Shown here in pieces: positions 1 through 6,600 of a stretch of 6,600 bases of DNA. This stretch comes from a virus (taxonomy: Duplodnaviria > Heunggongvirae > Uroviricota > Caudoviricetes): the IMG/VR virus record IMGVR_UViG_2734482774_000008; one strand, written 5' to 3'. The notes beneath the pieces are model-generated. The model saw only the letters and a list, made by a program, of their open reading frames with translations, had not been told where the DNA came from and did no database searches. Every line of letters starts with the position of its first letter. Position 1 is the first letter of the stretch. A program made the translations under genes and the position numbers.

Positions 1-345
1 TTCAGGGGGCCAGTCTAGACAGAATGACGCGATACCGGCTTTCTGTGGCTCGGTCAGTGGAACTTTTATATTGCGCTCCACCCATGCCAGCGCCTTATCA
101 CGCTCAATGGCGTTGACCTGGTCGCATTTTTCCTTCGACAGTTTCATATTGGGAAAAACGTTTTTTCCATCCACCACTGTGGCACCCCGACAGATGGTCC
201 ATATGCCAGAACCATCGCGGTATGCCATTGTGTGGTTACCTTCTTTTTCGTCCAGAAACTGGTCAAGTATCTGAGGAGCAGATGCGCCAGCACCAATCAG
301 CGCCAGAACGGCAGCCGACAGGCCGTATCTGATTTTTGTGTTCAT
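1..345 (-). CDS. SAR endolysin (T4-lysozyme-family phage lysozyme, RrrD/R21-like); 5' portion only (115 codons), continues beyond window position 1
   Basis: Manual translation of the minus strand from ATG at 345..343 gives MNTKIRYGLSAAVLALIGAGASAPQILDQFLDEKEGNHTMAYRDGSGIWTICRG..., open through position 1. Hydrophobic Gly/Ala-rich N-terminus typical of a signal-anchor-release domain, followed by Glu-(8aa)-Asp-(5aa)-Thr spacing matching the T4 lysozyme catalytic triad. The start ATG overlaps the upstream stop (ATGA). Not in the ORF track because it has no stop inside the window. Confidence 0.85.
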   Translation of the reverse strand, partial: MNTKIRYGLSAAVLALIGAGASAPQILDQFLDEKEGNHTMAYRDGSGIWTICRGATVVDGKNVFPNMKLSKEKCDQVNAIERDKALAWVERNIKVPLTEPQKAGIASFCLDWPPE

Positions 346-653
346 AGATATTTATGATGAGGACGCTCGTGCTTATTGGCAGGATTTTCAATCTTAAAGG
401 AGTACTGATGCTGCAGATAAGACTCAACTTTTTCTGACAATTTTTCTGCTACTTCCAGGAAGACTTGCCGGACGCTCATTCTGGCTGCTGCCTCATAAAA
501 CTCCAGCGCAGCTCCTTCAACACGGTCCATGGCGACATCCAGGCCAAAAATTTCACCGTCAAAGCGTTCTTTGTCCTGTAAGGCTACAGTTACCGTAACT
601 TTATTCTCAAAATTACGGACTCCTTTCACAACCAGTTCATAGTCTTGAGTCAT
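342..653 (-). CDS. ydfR: YdfR-like small prophage protein (DUF1327 family as recalled), encoded between holin and endolysin
   Basis: 103-aa ORF with AGGAG Shine-Dalgarno about 9 nt upstream of the ATG. Length, position and sequence match my recollection of E. coli Qin prophage YdfR. Stop overlaps the endolysin start, implying translational coupling. Confidence 0.7.
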   Translation of the reverse strand: MTQDYELVVKGVRNFENKVTVTVALQDKERFDGEIFGLDVAMDRVEGAALEFYEAAARMSVRQVFLEVAEKLSEKVESYLQHQYSFKIENPANKHERPHHKYL

Positions 654-657
654 TGGA

Positions 658-873
658 TTACTCTCCTCTCGCAGCCTTACGCCTGTCTTCTTTAATCTTG
701 AAATAAAGATTTGTCAGATACGTCAGCATGCCAAATACCAGACTACCCAATACACCTATTGCCGCCCACTGTGAGGGCGTGACTTTATCGAGCAACTGTA
801 AAAACCAGTAGCCAGCACTGCCTGCAGAGGTGCTGTAGGCGATGCCCGTTGTTAACTTATCCATGGATTTCAT
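658..873 (-). CDS. essD: Class II holin, S21-type pinholin (EssD/EssQ-like) with dual-start motif
   Basis: Translation from ATG at 873 gives [71 protein letters not shown] (71 aa), closely matching phage 21 S and E. coli EssD as recalled. Two predicted TM segments and a charged C-terminus. GGAGGTG Shine-Dalgarno immediately upstream. The MKSM N-terminus gives two in-frame starts (Met1, Met4). The track's 99-aa ORF carries an unsupported N-terminal extension. Confidence 0.9.
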
Positions 874-963
874 AGCCTCACCTCCGCAGATAACGGATGG
901 TGTACACGGTTTGGTTCGAAGAAGGAAAGAAGTTACATTAGCGTAAGGCCCGAACATCTATTC

Positions 964-1063: not shown

Positions 1064-1777
1064 CTAAGAAAATCTTGATAAATATTGGTGCGGAGGCACA
1101 CCAAAATATCCTCTAAAAACACTTACAAAATATGATGCATTGTCATACCCGCATATTCCCGCCACCTTGCCGACAGTATGGTTACTGTAGATCAATAATC
1201 TTTGCGCCATCATCATTCGTTCTTCAAGAATTAATTTACTAAACGATAATCCTTCGTCTTTTAATTTTCTTTTTAACAAACTCTCGCTCATATATAATCT
1301 TGAAGATATATCACAAAGTCTCCATGACGCTGAGATATCCGAGTGAATAATAGCCTTAACTTTACAACCTAAGCTATTAAGACTTCCGAACAAAAAACTT
1401 TGCACTATTTTCTCTGAAGATAAGACAGCAAGACATGCAAGTGATATTTGATTTCTAACTACATCCACGGTTTTGCTATCACAATTCAAGCATGCAACCA
1501 AGTTCTTTAACAATGAAAAATCTTCACATTCTACTATCAAGTATGACGGATAAAACCTTCTTACAGAAAAAGGTGAGAGTGTGTAGTTTTTAAAGAAATC
1601 ATTAACTGTTTTCTCCTCAACATCTACGATCATTAGATGATCTGTATTTGACGAAAAAAGATCTTTTAAATTGTATTCAATGAGGACAGCATTTCCTTTT
1701 TTAAACAAAATATCTTCTTTACCAATTCGGACACCAAACGAGTTCAACACCAAAATGATAGAATATATGTATGACAT
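1064..1777 (-). CDS. AraC/XylS-family transcriptional regulator (AppY/GadX/YdeO-like), AT-rich horizontally acquired gene
   Basis: C-terminal HTH region ...SESLLKRKLKDEGLSFSKLILEERMMMAQRLLIYSNHTVGKVAGICGYDNASYFVSVFRGYFGVPPHQY is a typical AraC-type double HTH and resembles AppY as recalled. Start placed at ATG 1777 (MSYIYS...), which has an AGGTGG Shine-Dalgarno 5 nt upstream; the track's start at 1786 is GTG. Sampled 60-nt stretches are about one-third G+C, well below flanking genes. Confidence 0.85.
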   Translation of the reverse strand: MSYIYSIILVLNSFGVRIGKEDILFKKGNAVLIEYNLKDLFSSNTDHLMIVDVEEKTVNDFFKNYTLSPFSVRRFYPSYLIVECEDFSLLKNLVACLNCDSKTVDVVRNQISLACLAVLSSEKIVQSFLFGSLNSLGCKVKAIIHSDISASWRLCDISSRLYMSESLLKRKLKDEGLSFSKLILEERMMMAQRLLIYSNHTVGKVAGICGYDNASYFVSVFRGYFGVPPHQYLSRFS

Positions 1778-1990
1778 ATTATCCACCTGATATCATTGGG
1801 GTTACACCAGGTAAGTATAGGTGGAAAATCAATATTCGCCAGTTCAACAATAAGGAAAATCTCATTGCATCACAACTATAAAACCATGTGTTTAACTCAC
1901 AAAAAACAAATCATTAAACTAATCTGTTATATTATAATAGCTGCGTGCAATAATAATATTATATGCTCTTTATATTCACTTGAAATATCT

Positions 1991-2183: not shown

Positions 2184-3143
2184 TTAATTCACCATCAGTC
2201 TTAGAGCCAGTTCTTCCGGATAGGGATCGAAGTAATTCTGTGTAAGCAAGTAATCATTAGGATACTCACCCAGATAATGCTTCAGCAGAGTCAACGGCGC
2301 AAGAAGAGGCAATGTGCCAAAGCGATAGTTAAGTATAACCTCGCTCAACTCTTTACGCTGGCGTGTACTTAAGTAATTACTAAAATACCCCTGTATATGC
2401 ATCAGCACATTCGTGTGATTTTTACGTGATGCTGGTTTTCTGAGAATCGCCATCAGATTATCACGATACACCTCAAAGTATGATTCAAGGTCCGCCCACT
2501 CGTGTATTGCAGCCACAAATGGTCCCATATCTTTATAGCCTGCCTGGCTATGCGCCAACAACTGAAGCTTATAACGACTATGAAAAGCTAATAACTCTCT
2601 TCTTGATAATTTCTCCTTGTAAAGGTGATTGAGCTCATGCAAAGCAAAAACTCTTTCAATAAAATTCTCACGAAGCACTGGATCATGTAATCGCCCATCC
2701 TCTTCAACCGGTAGCCAGGAAAACTTTTCCATCAAAGTGCTCGTAAATAGTCCCACTCCATCTTTACGACCTCGATTACCATTTTCATCATAGACACGCA
2801 CGCGCTCCATGCCACAGCTGGGAGATTTAGCACAAACCACAAACCCCGATACATCCTTTAATTTGTCCATATAAGAACGACTAAACTCTGTCATTCTCTC
2901 TGTCACATCCTCATTCTGGTCGTGGCTGAAACACATCCGTATATTTCCTTGCTTCGAGCGCACAAGTCGTAGAGCAGGACGCGGAACTGGCAGCCCTATA
3001 GCCATTTCCGGACATACTGGTCTGAATGTTACCCATTCCACTAATTTGTCCATTAAAAAGTCATCTCTTTTGTGACCACCATCAAAACGAACAGCAGAAC
3101 CGCCCAAACAACCGCTGATCCCAATCACAGGTTTTTTTATCAT
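2184..3143 (-). CDS. TudS(DUF523)-DUF1722 fusion protein, RudS-like [4Fe-4S] thiouracil / tRNA 4-thiouridine desulfidase
   Basis: 319 aa. N-terminal half carries the TudS signature: Cys12 (GISGCLGG), Cys44-Pro-Glu46 (VCPE), and Ser107-Pro-Ser109-Cys110-Gly (KSPSCG), matching the three cluster-ligating Cys plus catalytic Glu/Ser as recalled. C-terminal half resembles YbgA-type DUF1722, ending ...YFDPYPEELALRLMVN. Strong GGGGGAGGAA Shine-Dalgarno before the ATG at 3143. Confidence 0.85.
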   Translation of the reverse strand: MIKKPVIGISGCLGGSAVRFDGGHKRDDFLMDKLVEWVTFRPVCPEMAIGLPVPRPALRLVRSKQGNIRMCFSHDQNEDVTERMTEFSRSYMDKLKDVSGFVVCAKSPSCGMERVRVYDENGNRGRKDGVGLFTSTLMEKFSWLPVEEDGRLHDPVLRENFIERVFALHELNHLYKEKLSRRELLAFHSRYKLQLLAHSQAGYKDMGPFVAAIHEWADLESYFEVYRDNLMAILRKPASRKNHTNVLMHIQGYFSNYLSTRQRKELSEVILNYRFGTLPLLAPLTLLKHYLGEYPNDYLLTQNYFDPYPEELALRLMVN

Positions 3144-3335
3144 TTCCTCCCCCTTGACTAATTCATTAACACATAAACTTTGTAGTGCACGGACTAAATT
3201 GCCTTTCTGGCTTCATCACTGACAATTTTTCTGTTATTGACTATTCCTAATATAGTAGGAAAGTTCTTTAAGTGATCGGTCGTACTCATCTATCTTTCAT
3301 ACTTACTCTCAACTATCAAAAGTACAGGATTTATT
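3144..3335. promoter_or_regulatory. Divergent intergenic region expected to hold the promoters of the RudS-like gene (minus) and the blc-like gene (plus)
   Basis: 192-bp non-coding spacer between divergent start codons. Contains TTGACT hexamers (3155..3160 and 3236..3241) and a TATAGT hexamer (3251..3256), but I could not pair them into a promoter with canonical spacing. Confidence 0.35.
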
Positions 3336-3860
3336 ATGAAGTTATGGCCTGTGTTGACTGGCATTGCACTCTCTTTCACTCTTATAGCATGTAAGGCCCC
3401 GACACCACCTAAAGGTGTGCAGCCGATTACAAATTTTGACGCCAACCGCTACCTCGGAAAATGGTATGAAATAGCTCGCCTCGAGAACTGGTTCGAACGT
3501 GGTCTGGAACAGGTCAGCGCTACTTATGAAAAACGGAACGACGGAGGGATTCGCGTACTTAACCGTGGATACGATCCAACGAAAAACAAATGGAGCGAGA
3601 GCGAAGGTAAAGCATACTTTACTGGAGATACTAAAACTGCAGCGTTGAAAGTTTCGTTTTTTGGCCCCTTCTATGGTGGCTATAATGTAATCAAACTGGA
3701 TGATGAGTATAAGTATGCTCTTGTCAGTGGTCCGAACAGAGAATACCTATGGATTCTGGCAAGGACCCAAACTATTCCAGATAATGTAAAAGCAGACTAT
3801 GTGCGTACCGCTCAAAAGTTGGGATTCAATGTCAATGAACTATTATGGGTTAAACAATAA
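3336..3860 (+). CDS. blc: Outer-membrane lipoprotein lipocalin, Blc paralogue
   Basis: 174 aa. Signal peptide with lipobox LIAC (Cys19) and Lys at +2. Lipocalin SCR1 motif NFDANRYLGKWYEIAR and the block KAYFTGDTKTAALKVSFFGPFYGGYNVI closely resemble E. coli Blc as recalled (about 60 percent identity estimated by eye, so a paralogue). AGGA Shine-Dalgarno 6 nt upstream. Confidence 0.9.
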   Translation: MKLWPVLTGIALSFTLIACKAPTPPKGVQPITNFDANRYLGKWYEIARLENWFERGLEQVSATYEKRNDGGIRVLNRGYDPTKNKWSESEGKAYFTGDTKTAALKVSFFGPFYGGYNVIKLDDEYKYALVSGPNREYLWILARTQTIPDNVKADYVRTAQKLGFNVNELLWVKQ

Positions 3861-3915: not shown

Positions 3916-4015
3916 CTAAATCAGGAAACAAGCTGTTATATGATAATAACTACGTTGCGATTCCAACATTTAAAATGTTAGACTAATGAAAATCAGACAG
4001 CAACTTTTCCTTTAA

Positions 4016-4393
4016 TTATTTCGAACAATCAGCATCCATCTCCAATCGGAGATCCAACACCATCAGCATGCCCTCCACTACGCCCTCAGCTTTCTGGAGC
4101 ATCCTGCCAACCCAACAATCAGATCGCCCATGCTTATGTGCAAGCGCCATAAAAGTCATGCCGCCGACATAATAGTCCACCAATAAATCATGTAAATCGC
4201 TGTTGTTTTTTTTCAGGCGAGCCATACATTCACAAATGATCATCGCGTCATCGTCACAGCATTGCGGACGAGATCTTACTTTTGAAGGAATTAATCCCTT
4301 AAAACCGGCGGCAATGGACGACCAGGTCACATCTTCATGATTATTAGCCGCCCATGCCCCCCAACGCTCAAGAACCATCTGAATATCACGCAT
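4016..4393 (-). CDS. Late-gene antitermination protein Q (phage 82 Q / QuuD-like)
   Basis: Translation from ATG 4393 gives [34 protein letters not shown]...[34 protein letters not shown]... (125 aa), matching Q82-family antiterminators such as E. coli QuuD as recalled. GGAG Shine-Dalgarno 7 nt upstream. The track's start at 4408 is a TTG-initiated extension. Confidence 0.85.
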
Positions 4394-4410
4394 CAACTTA
4401 CTCCACAAAA

Positions 4411-5028
4411 TTAGGCCAGCACACCAATTGCCAGCGCGCGATCGATAAATCGAAAAATCAGCTCCAGTTGGGAGCCATACTTCTCTTCAAATGCCACGGT
4501 ATCCGTATGCAACTCGTCGTGATGCTTTCTGCACAAAGGCAAAACAAAGAGATCATGTGCTTTGGTTCCCATTCCGCCCTGCCCGTGACCAATCAGATGA
4601 TGCGGATCGTCGGCTGGCATACCGCAGCAAGCACACGGCTGTGTCTTAACCCAGCGTGTGTATTTCTCCTTAACCCACCGGTGACGTTTAGGCAGCTTCA
4701 TGAAAGATTCCGGAGACTCTGGATCAACGGTGATGCTTACCACCGTCTTTTCCTGTGATGGGTTTTGTTGCTGGTGGGCGTGAGGCAACGGTGCAAGATT
4801 TTTTGTGCGCTGTTTCAATATGCTGGTGGCGGTCTGCTCTCCCGGTACGATGTCGCTTTCGCGGTACACCGAGCAGATTTTTTCCGCTGGTAATCCCAGC
4901 GAGCGACGTAATACCGCTTCCGGTAGCGCGTCCGCCAGCTGATTGCGGACCGCCCACCAGGATAATTCAGCCAGAGATAATTCACGCTCCTGCGTACCGC
5001 TTATTGCGTGACCGATGACGTCAATCAT
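4411..5028 (-). CDS. YdfU-like prophage protein with Cys/His-rich C-terminal domain (DUF968 as recalled); N-terminus possibly truncated or replaced
   Basis: 205-aa ORF immediately upstream of Q on the same strand. C-terminal block [49 protein letters not shown] has a CxxC...HH...C..HH metal-binding pattern. No convincing Shine-Dalgarno before the ATG at 5028, which lies 2 bp from the divergent xis-like start. Confidence 0.65.
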
Positions 5029-5030
5029 CC

Positions 5031-5285
5031 ATGCTGACAGGTTTTGATGAGCAAGTTGCTCGAGTGATTCGGATATCCGAAGAGCAGTTAATTGCGCTGA
5101 AAGGAATAAAAAAAGGTACGTTAAAAAAGGCCCGGGAAAAATCGTTTATGGAAGGAAGGGAATATAAGCATGTCGCTCATGACGGTATGCCATGGGATAA
5201 CAGTCCATGCTTTTACAACCTGGAAGAAATTGATCGCTGGATTGAGCGCCAGGCATCAGCAAGACCAAGACGTCATCTTACTTGA
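5031..5285 (+). CDS. Excisionase-like small DNA-binding protein (Xis-like), upstream of and co-oriented with the integrase
   Basis: 84-aa ORF ending 34 nt before the integrase start. Contains EGREYKHVAHDG, resembling the DGREYLFHESA wing region of lambda Xis as recalled, at a similar distance from the N-terminus. No clear Shine-Dalgarno, so the exact start is uncertain. Confidence 0.55.
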   Translation: MLTGFDEQVARVIRISEEQLIALKGIKKGTLKKAREKSFMEGREYKHVAHDGMPWDNSPCFYNLEEIDRWIERQASARPRRHLT

Positions 5286-5319
5286 CTAAAAGCCACACTA
5301 ACTAATGAGAGAAGTTGAA

Positions 5320-6600
5320 ATGAAATATCCGACAGGCGTGGAAAACCATGGAGGGAAATTACGTATCTGGTTTGTTTATAAAGGCGTAAGAGTCAGGGAA
5401 AATCTGGGGGTTCCTGACACAGCAAAAAACAGGCGCGTTGCAGGTGAACTACGCTCCTCTGTTTGTTACGCAATAAAAACTGGTGTTTTCGACTATGCAA
5501 AACAGTTTCCCTCCTCACGCAATCTGGAAAAATTTGGTGAGGCCCGACAAGATTTAACCATAAAAGAACTGGCTGAAAAATTTCTGGCACTGAAAGAAAC
5601 TGAAGTCGCCAAAACATCACTCAACACATACCGTGCCGTCATCAAAAATATCCTGAGCATAATCGGTGAAAAAAATCTTGCCTCATCGATTAATAAAGAA
5701 AAATTACTGGAGGTTCGTAAAGAGCTACTGACTGGATACCAGATCCCCAAAAGTAACTATATTGTTACACAACCAGGGAGATCGGCTGTAACTGTAAATA
5801 ATTACATGACAAATCTTAACGCCGTGTTCCAGTTTGGTGTTGATAACGGTTACCTGGCAGATAACCCGTTTAAGGGGATCTCGCCATTAAAGGAATCAAG
5901 AACCATTCCGGATCCTCTTTCGCGGGAGGAATTCATCCGTCTTATCGATGCGTGCAGAAATCAGCAAGCCAAAAATTTATGGTGTGTTTCTGTTTATACT
6001 GGCGTTCGCCCTGGTGAGCTGTGTGCACTTGGATGGGAGGACATAGATCTGAAAAATGGAACAATGATGATCAGGAGAAATTTAGCAAAAGACCGTTTCA
6101 CGGTCCCAAAAACACAGGCGGGAACCAATCGGGTCATTCATCTTATTAAGCCAGCAATCGACGCTCTCCGGAGTCAGATGACATTAACGAGACTGAGCAA
6201 AGAGCATATCATTGATGTTCACCTCAGAGAGTATGGCAGAACAGAAAAACATAAATGCACCTTTGTTTTTCAACCTGAAGTGTCAGCGAGAGTAAAAAAT
6301 TATGGTGACCATTTTACCGTTGACTCAATAAGGCAGATGTGGGACGCAGCGATAAAACGTGCCGGACTCCGCCATCGAAAATCATATCAGTCGAGACATA
6401 CTTATGCCTGCTGGTCGCTGACAGCTGGTGCTAACCCGGCATTTATAGCAAACCAGATGGGCCATGCAGATGCGCAAATGGTATTTCAGGTATACGGAAA
6501 ATGGATGTCTGAAAACAATAATGCACAGGTAGCTTTGTTAAATACACAGTTAAGCGAGTTTGCCCCAACCATGCCCCATAACGAAGCAATGAAAAATTAA
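5320..6600 (+). CDS. int: Phage tyrosine integrase (Rac IntR-like, with N-terminal arm-binding-type domain)
   Basis: Translation from ATG 5320 (GAGAGA purine-rich stretch upstream) gives MKYPTGVENHGGKLRIWFVYKGVRVRENLG..., resembling the IntR-type N-terminal domain as recalled. C-terminal catalytic signatures present: TGVRPGEL (Arg), SRHTYACWSL (Arg-His), GHADAQMVFQVYGKW (His and catalytic Tyr). Stop codon is the last three bases of the window. Confidence 0.9.
   Translation: MKYPTGVENHGGKLRIWFVYKGVRVRENLGVPDTAKNRRVAGELRSSVCYAIKTGVFDYAKQFPSSRNLEKFGEARQDLTIKELAEKFLALKETEVAKTSLNTYRAVIKNILSIIGEKNLASSINKEKLLEVRKELLTGYQIPKSNYIVTQPGRSAVTVNNYMTNLNAVFQFGVDNGYLADNPFKGISPLKESRTIPDPLSREEFIRLIDACRNQQAKNLWCVSVYTGVRPGELCALGWEDIDLKNGTMMIRRNLAKDRFTVPKTQAGTNRVIHLIKPAIDALRSQMTLTRLSKEHIIDVHLREYGRTEKHKCTFVFQPEVSARVKNYGDHFTVDSIRQMWDAAIKRAGLRHRKSYQSRHTYACWSLTAGANPAFIANQMGHADAQMVFQVYGKWMSENNNAQVALLNTQLSEFAPTMPHNEAMKN

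Follow-up and report, generated by a model that had tools for sequence, protein, structure and literature searches.

Why should a prophage carry, between its antiterminator gene and its lysis genes, an enzyme that would remove sulfur from transfer RNA (tRNA)? Such a gene was examined in one stretch of Caudoviricetes DNA, IMG/VR record IMGVR_UViG_2734482774_000008, hereafter the window, which was analysed over its whole length of 6,600 nucleotides (nt). A first-pass annotation, made from the letters alone, had assigned the gene at 2184-3143 on the minus strand to the RudS-type tRNA 4-thiouridine (s4U) desulfidases and had described it as prophage cargo. We consider it very probable that this gene, rudS, encodes a RudS-type [4Fe-4S] desulfidase, is carried as phage cargo and would be expressed late in intact phages.

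The window encodes a TudS-DUF1722 fusion protein

The open reading frame (ORF) of rudS is intact and encodes 319 amino acids (aa); it starts with the ATG at 3143-3141, preceded by a strong Shine-Dalgarno-like sequence, AAGGGGGAGGA, at 3155-3145. Pfam search revealed two full-length domains, both scoring well over the curated cut-offs. The N-terminal domain (residues 7-149, at 2697-3125 on the minus strand) matches the 2-thiouracil desulfurase/DUF523 family PF04463 with an E-value of 5.8e-40 over profile positions 1-141 of 141, and the C-terminal domain (residues 192-309, at 2217-2570 on the same strand) matches the DUF1722 family PF08349 with an E-value of 9.4e-40 over positions 1-117 of 117. 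The protein also matches phrog_3275 of the PHROGs database, a family listed as of unknown function, over its full length. In RefSeq the product is named only “YbgA family protein”, a label that undersells rudS.

Sequence comparison identified a single solved relative, the stand-alone desulfidase TudS (PDB 6Z92), with an E-value of 8.4e-4 by single sequence and 2.8e-5 by profile. In the alignment, Cys12 pairs with TudS Cys10, Cys44-Pro-Glu46 with Cys43-Pro-Glu45, Arg55 with Arg54, and Ser107-Pro-Ser109-Cys110 with Ser101-Pro-Ser103-Cys104. These ten signature positions are unchanged in all 146 intact orthologues, which come from phage, prophage and chromosomal loci. Cys12, Cys44 and Cys110, which are the same in the tested viral protein RudS_vir, are probably the ligands of a [4Fe-4S] cluster, and Glu46, Arg55, Ser107 and Ser109 are the predicted catalytic residues of the TudS domain. 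The first-pass annotation had read a full TudS signature fused to a YbgA-type DUF1722 domain, namely the RudS architecture, and its coordinates, strand, domains and residues all proved exact. Two of the checks it had proposed, the Pfam search for DUF523 and DUF1722 and the alignment to TudS, came out in its favour, as every Cys, Glu and Ser residue it named pairs with a catalytic position of TudS.

RudS has been defined as the fusion of TudS with DUF1722, and six such proteins, expressed in E. coli BL21(DE3), all cut the s4U of tRNA by 4.7- to 26-fold (PMC11417400). One of them is RudS_vir (gp66, H3V29_gp66) of Escherichia phage 1H12, which has the same length as the window protein and is 92% identical to it over all 319 residues; its overexpression in BL21(DE3) lowers tRNA s4U, as measured by high-performance liquid chromatography with tandem mass spectrometry (PMC11417400). 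Given this identity, the window allele probably removes s4U as well. A RudS-type desulfidase would turn s4U at positions 8 and 9 of tRNA back to uridine and so take away the sulfur through which tRNA senses UVA. The cluster held by Cys12, Cys44 and Cys110 would leave its fourth iron free for the thiocarbonyl sulfur, Glu46, placed by Arg55, Ser107 and Ser109, would activate a water molecule, and the C-terminal DUF1722 domain would dock the tRNA.

The biochemical reference for this scheme is RudS_KT (PP_0741) of Pseudomonas putida KT2440, a distant orthologue with the same TudS-DUF1722 fusion. Mutants of its E51, S111, S113 or R60 were inactive, the cluster cysteines were mutated as well, and an active [4Fe-4S] cluster was concluded to be essential (PMC11417400). 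By numbering offset, E51, R60, S111 and S113 correspond to E46, R55, S107 and S109 of the window protein, and R24, G27, H29 and K30 to R19, G22, H24 and K25. The DUF1722 domain of RudS_KT, from which we take the role of the domain in the window protein, binds the anticodon region of tRNA, and its residues N202, N203, S243, R244 and T246 are important for tRNA binding (PMC11417400). S239, R240, N242 and T244 of the window protein are invariant among 21 enterobacterial and phage orthologues and match these contacts by numbering offset only, the pairs S243/R244 and S239/R240 being likewise matched by numbering and not by alignment. Overexpression of RudS_KT also lessened the growth delay under ultraviolet A (UVA) light (PMC11417400).

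RudS_ST (STM1389, ORF319) of Salmonella enterica LT2, compared here by its published description, shares the 319-aa architecture and the cysteine numbering. TudS, which acts on thiouracil and 4-thiouridine monophosphate (4-thio-UMP), has the same catalytic domain with the same cluster ligands and Glu, Ser and Arg residues, but it lacks DUF1722 and does not lower tRNA s4U (PMC11417400). Stand-alone TudS proteins are single domains of ~150-170 aa, compared to the 319-aa fusion in the window. Conversely, YbgA of E. coli K-12 (b0707) is a stand-alone DUF1722 protein; residues 161-315 of the window protein match its model, at 189 bits against a cut-off of 237 for the YbgA equivalog (NCBIfam PRK10167), but YbgA lacks the catalytic domain and has no effect on s4U (PMC11417400).

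rudS is the centre of a cargo cassette

rudS is the centre of a three-gene cargo cassette, composed of blc, rudS and an AraC-like gene, that occupies the interval from Q to the holin gene in lambdoid phages of E. coli. On the minus strand of the window, the order is a truncated ydfU, the antiterminator gene Q, a 155-nt spacer with a strong terminator at its end, blc (antisense), rudS, the AraC-like gene, the holin gene and ydfR. Q lies at 4016-4408 (minus strand; annotated in RefSeq as 378 nt at 4016-4393) and matches Pfam Phage_antitermQ with an E-value of 1.6e-50. The lipocalin gene blc, for an outer-membrane lipoprotein, lies on the plus strand at 3336-3860 and is transcribed against the phage late operon and divergently from rudS; it matches Pfam Lipocalin_2 and scores 312 bits with the NCBIfam Blc model against a cut-off of 267. 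Downstream of rudS, a 397-bp AT-rich spacer leads to the gene for an AraC-family regulator of YdeO/GadX-like type (1064-1786, minus strand). The holin gene (658-957, minus strand; annotated as essD at 658-873), assigned to the phage 21 type by ORF, Pfam and annotation, is the first gene of the lysis cassette. Two intrinsic terminators found by scanning, at 3917-3894 and 995-974, both on the minus strand, bracket the cassette, and the second of them, between the AraC-like gene and the holin gene, closes it.

Twelve records of isolated lambdoid phages, among them IdasGreatGrand, 1H12, Lambda_2E9, 4B5, 2G7a and the ev series, contain the same block of Q, blc, rudS, araC and holin genes with a nucleotide identity of 88-93%, and their annotations give the same order. 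A close relative is encoded on no fewer than 127 IMG/VR contigs; 80 of them were fetched, and each shows the same order as far as it reaches. Among 5426 complete E. coli genomes, 1136 contain rudS, 1064 of them with at least 80% of the gene in one piece, and 980 contain at least 80% of the whole cassette in conserved order, which brings carriage to ~18-21%. At least two attachment sites, ydfJ-rspB and ybhC-bioA, harbour the cassette. The second is the lambda site, where strain 18-4 has a prophage whose early region is complete and whose cassette contains a frameshifted araC. The description as prophage cargo therefore holds across isolated phages, IMG/VR contigs and E. coli prophages.

Related prophages with similar Q and holin genes have a porin gene in the same slot, so that rudS lies between modules and is replaced in relatives, as a moron would be. 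Cargo directly downstream of Q is likewise found in this Q-to-S slot in Stx phages (stx) and in DLP12-type prophages (an nmpC/ompC-like porin gene), and the Qin prophage of K-12 has cspB and cspF between Q and the holin gene. The cargo gene has also been maintained: rudS is intact in 82 of 83 phage or prophage copies, and since the ratio of nonsynonymous to synonymous substitution rates (dN/dS) is 0.14-0.27 among phage alleles, it is under purifying selection in these copies. The window protein itself is 97% identical to the copy in phage IdasGreatGrand and 100% identical to copies in many IMG/VR prophage contigs. The 1H12 locus has the same neighbours in the same order (Q, blc, AraC-like gene and holin gene), with AraC-like products only 76% identical to each other.

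Interrupted copies of the gene were also observed. In the B lineage, represented by E. coli Nico21(DE3), which derives from BL21(DE3), Q and blc remain and rudS is reduced to its first 147 nt (locus 3501-3647), cut by an insertion sequence (IS) of the IS3 type; BL21(DE3), the “s4U-eraser-free” host of the RudS study, carries this stump if it shares the locus with Nico21(DE3). In E. coli KMi012 and YSP8-1, rudS is split by IS1, and RefSeq names the two halves “DUF523 domain-containing protein” and “YbgA family protein”.

Expression of rudS

The first-pass annotation had placed the gene where late transcription would drive it, and rudS does lie after Q and ahead of the lysis genes, pointing the same way as the late operon. 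The Q-proximal spacer (3918-4015, minus strand), where lambdoid architecture leads one to expect the late promoter pR' and the Q-loading site, hardly differs between the window and viable phages. It is followed, ~100 nt downstream of Q, by the intrinsic terminator at 3917-3894, a hairpin with a T-run that is identical in 1H12 and IdasGreatGrand and that also sits just beyond the 3' end of blc. The conserved spacer and hairpin would fit pR' plus a candidate tR'. On its way to the holin gene, a Q-modified polymerase would have to read through blc in antisense, then through rudS and the AraC-like gene. In intact phages rudS would thus be expressed during induction, because the late Q-antiterminated transcript must cross it to reach the lysis genes. 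Expression of stx depends on the late transcript; for rudS, unlike stx, this dependence is our inference. In lysogens, and in the window remnant, expression of rudS would need a separate promoter or activator.

The 192-bp intergenic region between the divergent rudS and blc genes (3144-3335) holds the ribosome-binding site of rudS. An inverted repeat in this region, AAATTG-N21-CAATTT at 3196-3228, has arms that we take to resemble MlrA-type half-sites, and it was considered as an MlrA site. It was rejected, as phage 1H12 does not preserve its right arm and no comparable sequence stands upstream of rudS in Enterobacter or Citrobacter; the repeat is probably due to chance.

Evidence against late-expressed cargo and alternative explanations

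Several observations weigh against the reading of the window gene as an active, late-expressed desulfidase. The window prophage, like the nearest Qin-type prophages, lacks the immunity, replication and structural modules, which makes expression from a late operon doubtful at this site, and for the late promoter of the rudS operon only a candidate position can be given. A consensus scan gave no sigma-70-like promoter ahead of rudS, 3144-3335 included, and promoter-like sites are not enriched in the region (13, compared to 10.9 ± 3.1 in shuffled sequence). Regarding the protein, the window allele differs from RudS_vir at 26 residues, and the known activity is that of RudS_vir and not of this allele. 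Moreover, relative to protein level RudS_vir acted least efficiently of the RudS proteins on tRNA, and it rescued growth on 4-thiouracil sooner than any other (PMC11417400). An AlphaFold2 model built from a 21-sequence alignment, in which all sequences are at least 69% identical, has a mean predicted local distance difference test score of 59 and a predicted template modelling score of 0.41 and is unfit for a fold search.

The first alternative is that rudS is here a silent passenger in a decaying cryptic prophage, with no meaningful expression or current function. In the nearest E. coli genomes the region lies at the site of a Qin-type cryptic prophage, between ydfJ/ydfI and rspB. The nearest relative, the Qin-type prophage of E. 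coli ANT, contains ~2.98 kb (18374-21351 of that locus) that are absent from the window; with this deletion the 5' portion of ydfU, rem, an IS1 and an exonuclease pseudogene are gone, and the rest of ydfU directly adjoins xis and int. The junction, with an overlap of 7 bp, was placed at 5071-5077 by comparison with ANT. The window prophage is a decayed Qin-type remnant, compared to the viable phage 1H12, and it is incapable of lytic growth because its early region is deleted; the suggestion of the first-pass annotation that the gene might act during lytic growth fails for this window. This internal deletion, a remnant with neither early nor structural genes and the missing promoter consensus all favour a passenger, as does the frequent damage to such cassettes elsewhere, namely an IS3 in blc, an IS1 inside rudS, the stump cut by IS3 and the frameshifted araC of strain 18-4. 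Against it, the ORF is intact here and identical in protein sequence to many prophage copies, and for the cassette as a whole the intact copies, the low dN/dS and the E. coli carriers with the gene largely in one piece (all given above) speak for maintenance. We regard a silent passenger as a plausible reading of this particular decayed locus, if on balance an unlikely one.

A second alternative holds that the phage enzyme serves mainly, like TudS, in salvage or detoxification of free 4-thiouracil or 4-thio-UMP that tRNA turnover releases, its activity on tRNA being a side effect of overexpression. In a uracil auxotroph grown on 4-thiouracil, the lag was shortest with RudS_vir of all six RudS proteins, and RudS_vir took off less tRNA s4U than RudS_ST at a similar protein level (PMC11417400). 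Stand-alone TudS enzymes recycle 4-thio-UMP (PMC10611767). Because RudS_vir is relatively weak on tRNA and quickest on 4-thiouracil, tRNA s4U may not be its preferred substrate in vivo. However, no RudS supported growth as TudS did, and RudS_vir significantly lowers tRNA s4U (PMC11417400). The DUF1722 domain of the window protein is moreover full length and strongly conserved, and purifying selection in the phage copies extends over the whole rudS gene. Salvage as the main role is accordingly improbable.

The last alternative, that rudS belongs to the E. coli chromosome proper and only happens to adjoin phage genes, could draw on the orthologues in non-phage contexts of related genera described below, but it is refuted by the position of rudS, in E. 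coli always between Q and the holin gene in the contexts examined, and by its presence in isolated plaque-forming phages and at more than one attachment site.

Chromosomal relatives and origin of the cassette

Chromosomal orthologues, 66-76% identical to the window protein, are found in non-phage contexts of Citrobacter, Enterobacter, Klebsiella, Serratia, Pectobacterium and related genera. Chromosomal blc and rudS are divergent neighbours, just as in the phages, in Citrobacter sedlakii and Citrobacter sp. JGM124. Two genes, one MlrA-like of the MerR family and one transthyretin-like, separate blc from rudS in Enterobacter and Leclercia. In Citrobacter braakii, rudS ends a cluster of genes for cyclopropane-fatty-acid synthase, a DUF1365 protein and an amine oxidase. 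Because blc and rudS are also adjacent on some enterobacterial chromosomes, the pair was probably captured by the phage as one unit. The phage blc shares 75-80% identity with most of the blc genes that adjoin rudS on Enterobacter and Citrobacter chromosomes. In PMC6969025, blc is reported as a common lambda moron, present in over half of the gut lambda-like phages under study.

Chromosomal rudS genes of Salmonella and Enterobacter cloacae stand beside a MerR-family gene and have been proposed to be light-inducible (PMC11417400), and we confirmed the MerR-rudS arrangement directly in Enterobacter. In contrast, neither the window nor the phage loci examined showed a MerR gene in Pfam searches and annotations. 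The MerR-type regulator gene that adjoins some chromosomal orthologues has been lost from the phage cassette, and neither the window nor the phage loci belong to the light-responsive type of locus linked to MerR/LitR or to photolyase and photo-oxidative stress genes.

The AraC-like gene has a different history. No AraC homologue was found near chromosomal rudS among the loci examined, and the gene (~32% GC) and its spacer have a GC content of 29-33%, compared to 42-55% in the flanks. Because it has no counterpart near chromosomal rudS and a much lower GC content, the AraC-like gene was probably acquired separately from blc-rudS. By GC content, Pfam, NCBIfam and PHROGs it belongs to the AraC family; its nearest models are those of YdeO, GadX and HilD, all of them matched below their cut-offs, and it falls in phrog_1450. 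Among phages it diverges faster (76-86% aa identity) than rudS (92-97%). AppY and PatE, AraC-like regulators that are likewise encoded by prophages, fall broadly into the same class, and the gene may regulate host genes or the cassette itself.

Two proposed counterparts of the AraC-like gene were rejected. One was orf242 of Salmonella pathogenicity island 2, the neighbour of ORF319/RudS_ST, which encodes a MerR-family regulator (PMC11417400). This candidate is further excluded by the 241-aa MlrA-like MerR protein encoded beside rudS in Enterobacter and by the absence of AraC genes near chromosomal rudS. The other was orf10 of prophage phiv142-3 of avian pathogenic E. coli (PMC7724020), whose knockout primer has no match in the window.

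One further context was observed in Salmonella enterica serovar Derby and a related metagenome contig, where a 73%-identical rudS lies between ttcA, itself a gene for tRNA 2-thiocytidine synthesis, and a Usp-family gene that we take to be uspF. This rudS adjoins a DUF1367 phage-type gene at the counterpart of the attachment region of the E. coli Rac prophage, and the locus looks like another prophage remnant.

Novelty and physiological meaning

The first-pass annotation had assumed that RudS was undescribed as a phage-encoded function, a claim that the literature overturns. Ten viral RudS sequences are listed, all from siphoviruses, and one of them, 1H12 gp66, was synthesised and tested as RudS_vir (PMC11417400). 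Phage-borne RudS and its biochemical identity are already published, and the window does not hold a new kind of system; the remaining value lies in the prevalence, the genomic context and the physiological question. As to prevalence, E. coli was said to lack RudS both in the RudS paper (PMC11417400) and in a 2026 review. The complete E. coli genomes correct this statement, with rudS nearly always in the lambdoid cassette, and a prophage rudS in about one fifth of strains bears on how experiments on s4U, UVA and the stringent response are read across strains. As to context, we found no discussion, in the literature searched, of the fixed position between Q and the holin gene, of the blc and AraC-like partners or of the missing MerR gene.

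The physiological question is whether a prophage alters the tRNA modification state of its host. A role for the phage or the lysogen is not discussed in the RudS paper or in the 2026 review on tRNA modifications in viral replication, nor did we find remodelling of tRNA thiolation at induction or the UVA response of lysogens discussed in the RudS paper or in two later reviews. Prophage rudS, freed of MerR-type control, might measurably lower tRNA s4U in natural carriers, as a lysogenic-conversion gene or as a late-expressed one; we put this forward tentatively and think it rather doubtful. If it were true, the UVA growth delay and the stringent response would be blunted in lysogens, or phage translation would be kept running after induction by sunlight, and near-UV physiology would differ among E. 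coli strains through a prophage, contrary to the textbook view that E. coli has no s4U eraser.

Other features of the window and minor observations

At the lysis end of the window, ydfR (342-653, minus strand; DUF1327 by Pfam and annotation) belongs to the Qin-type lysis region. Upstream of Q lies the truncated ydfU (4411-5028, minus strand; DUF968 by Pfam and annotation), with 205 aa compared to 349 aa in fuller Qin-type prophages. The end of the prophage on the rspB side is formed on the plus strand at 5031-6600 by the genes for an excisionase (5031-5285) and a tyrosine integrase (5305-6600), identified by Pfam and annotation, at the attachment end. Rfam and tRNA scans of the window gave no matches.

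The TudS domain of the window protein also matches a second PHROG family, phrog_27395 (153 positions), with an E-value of 1.6e-13, which suggests that stand-alone TudS-like proteins exist in other phages. Finally, two short contigs binned in a metagenome-assembled genome of “Candidatus Nanosynbacter” encode rudS, the AraC-like gene, the holin gene, Q and blc at 85-97% identity to the coliphage cassette, and they are almost certainly coliphage contamination of the bin.

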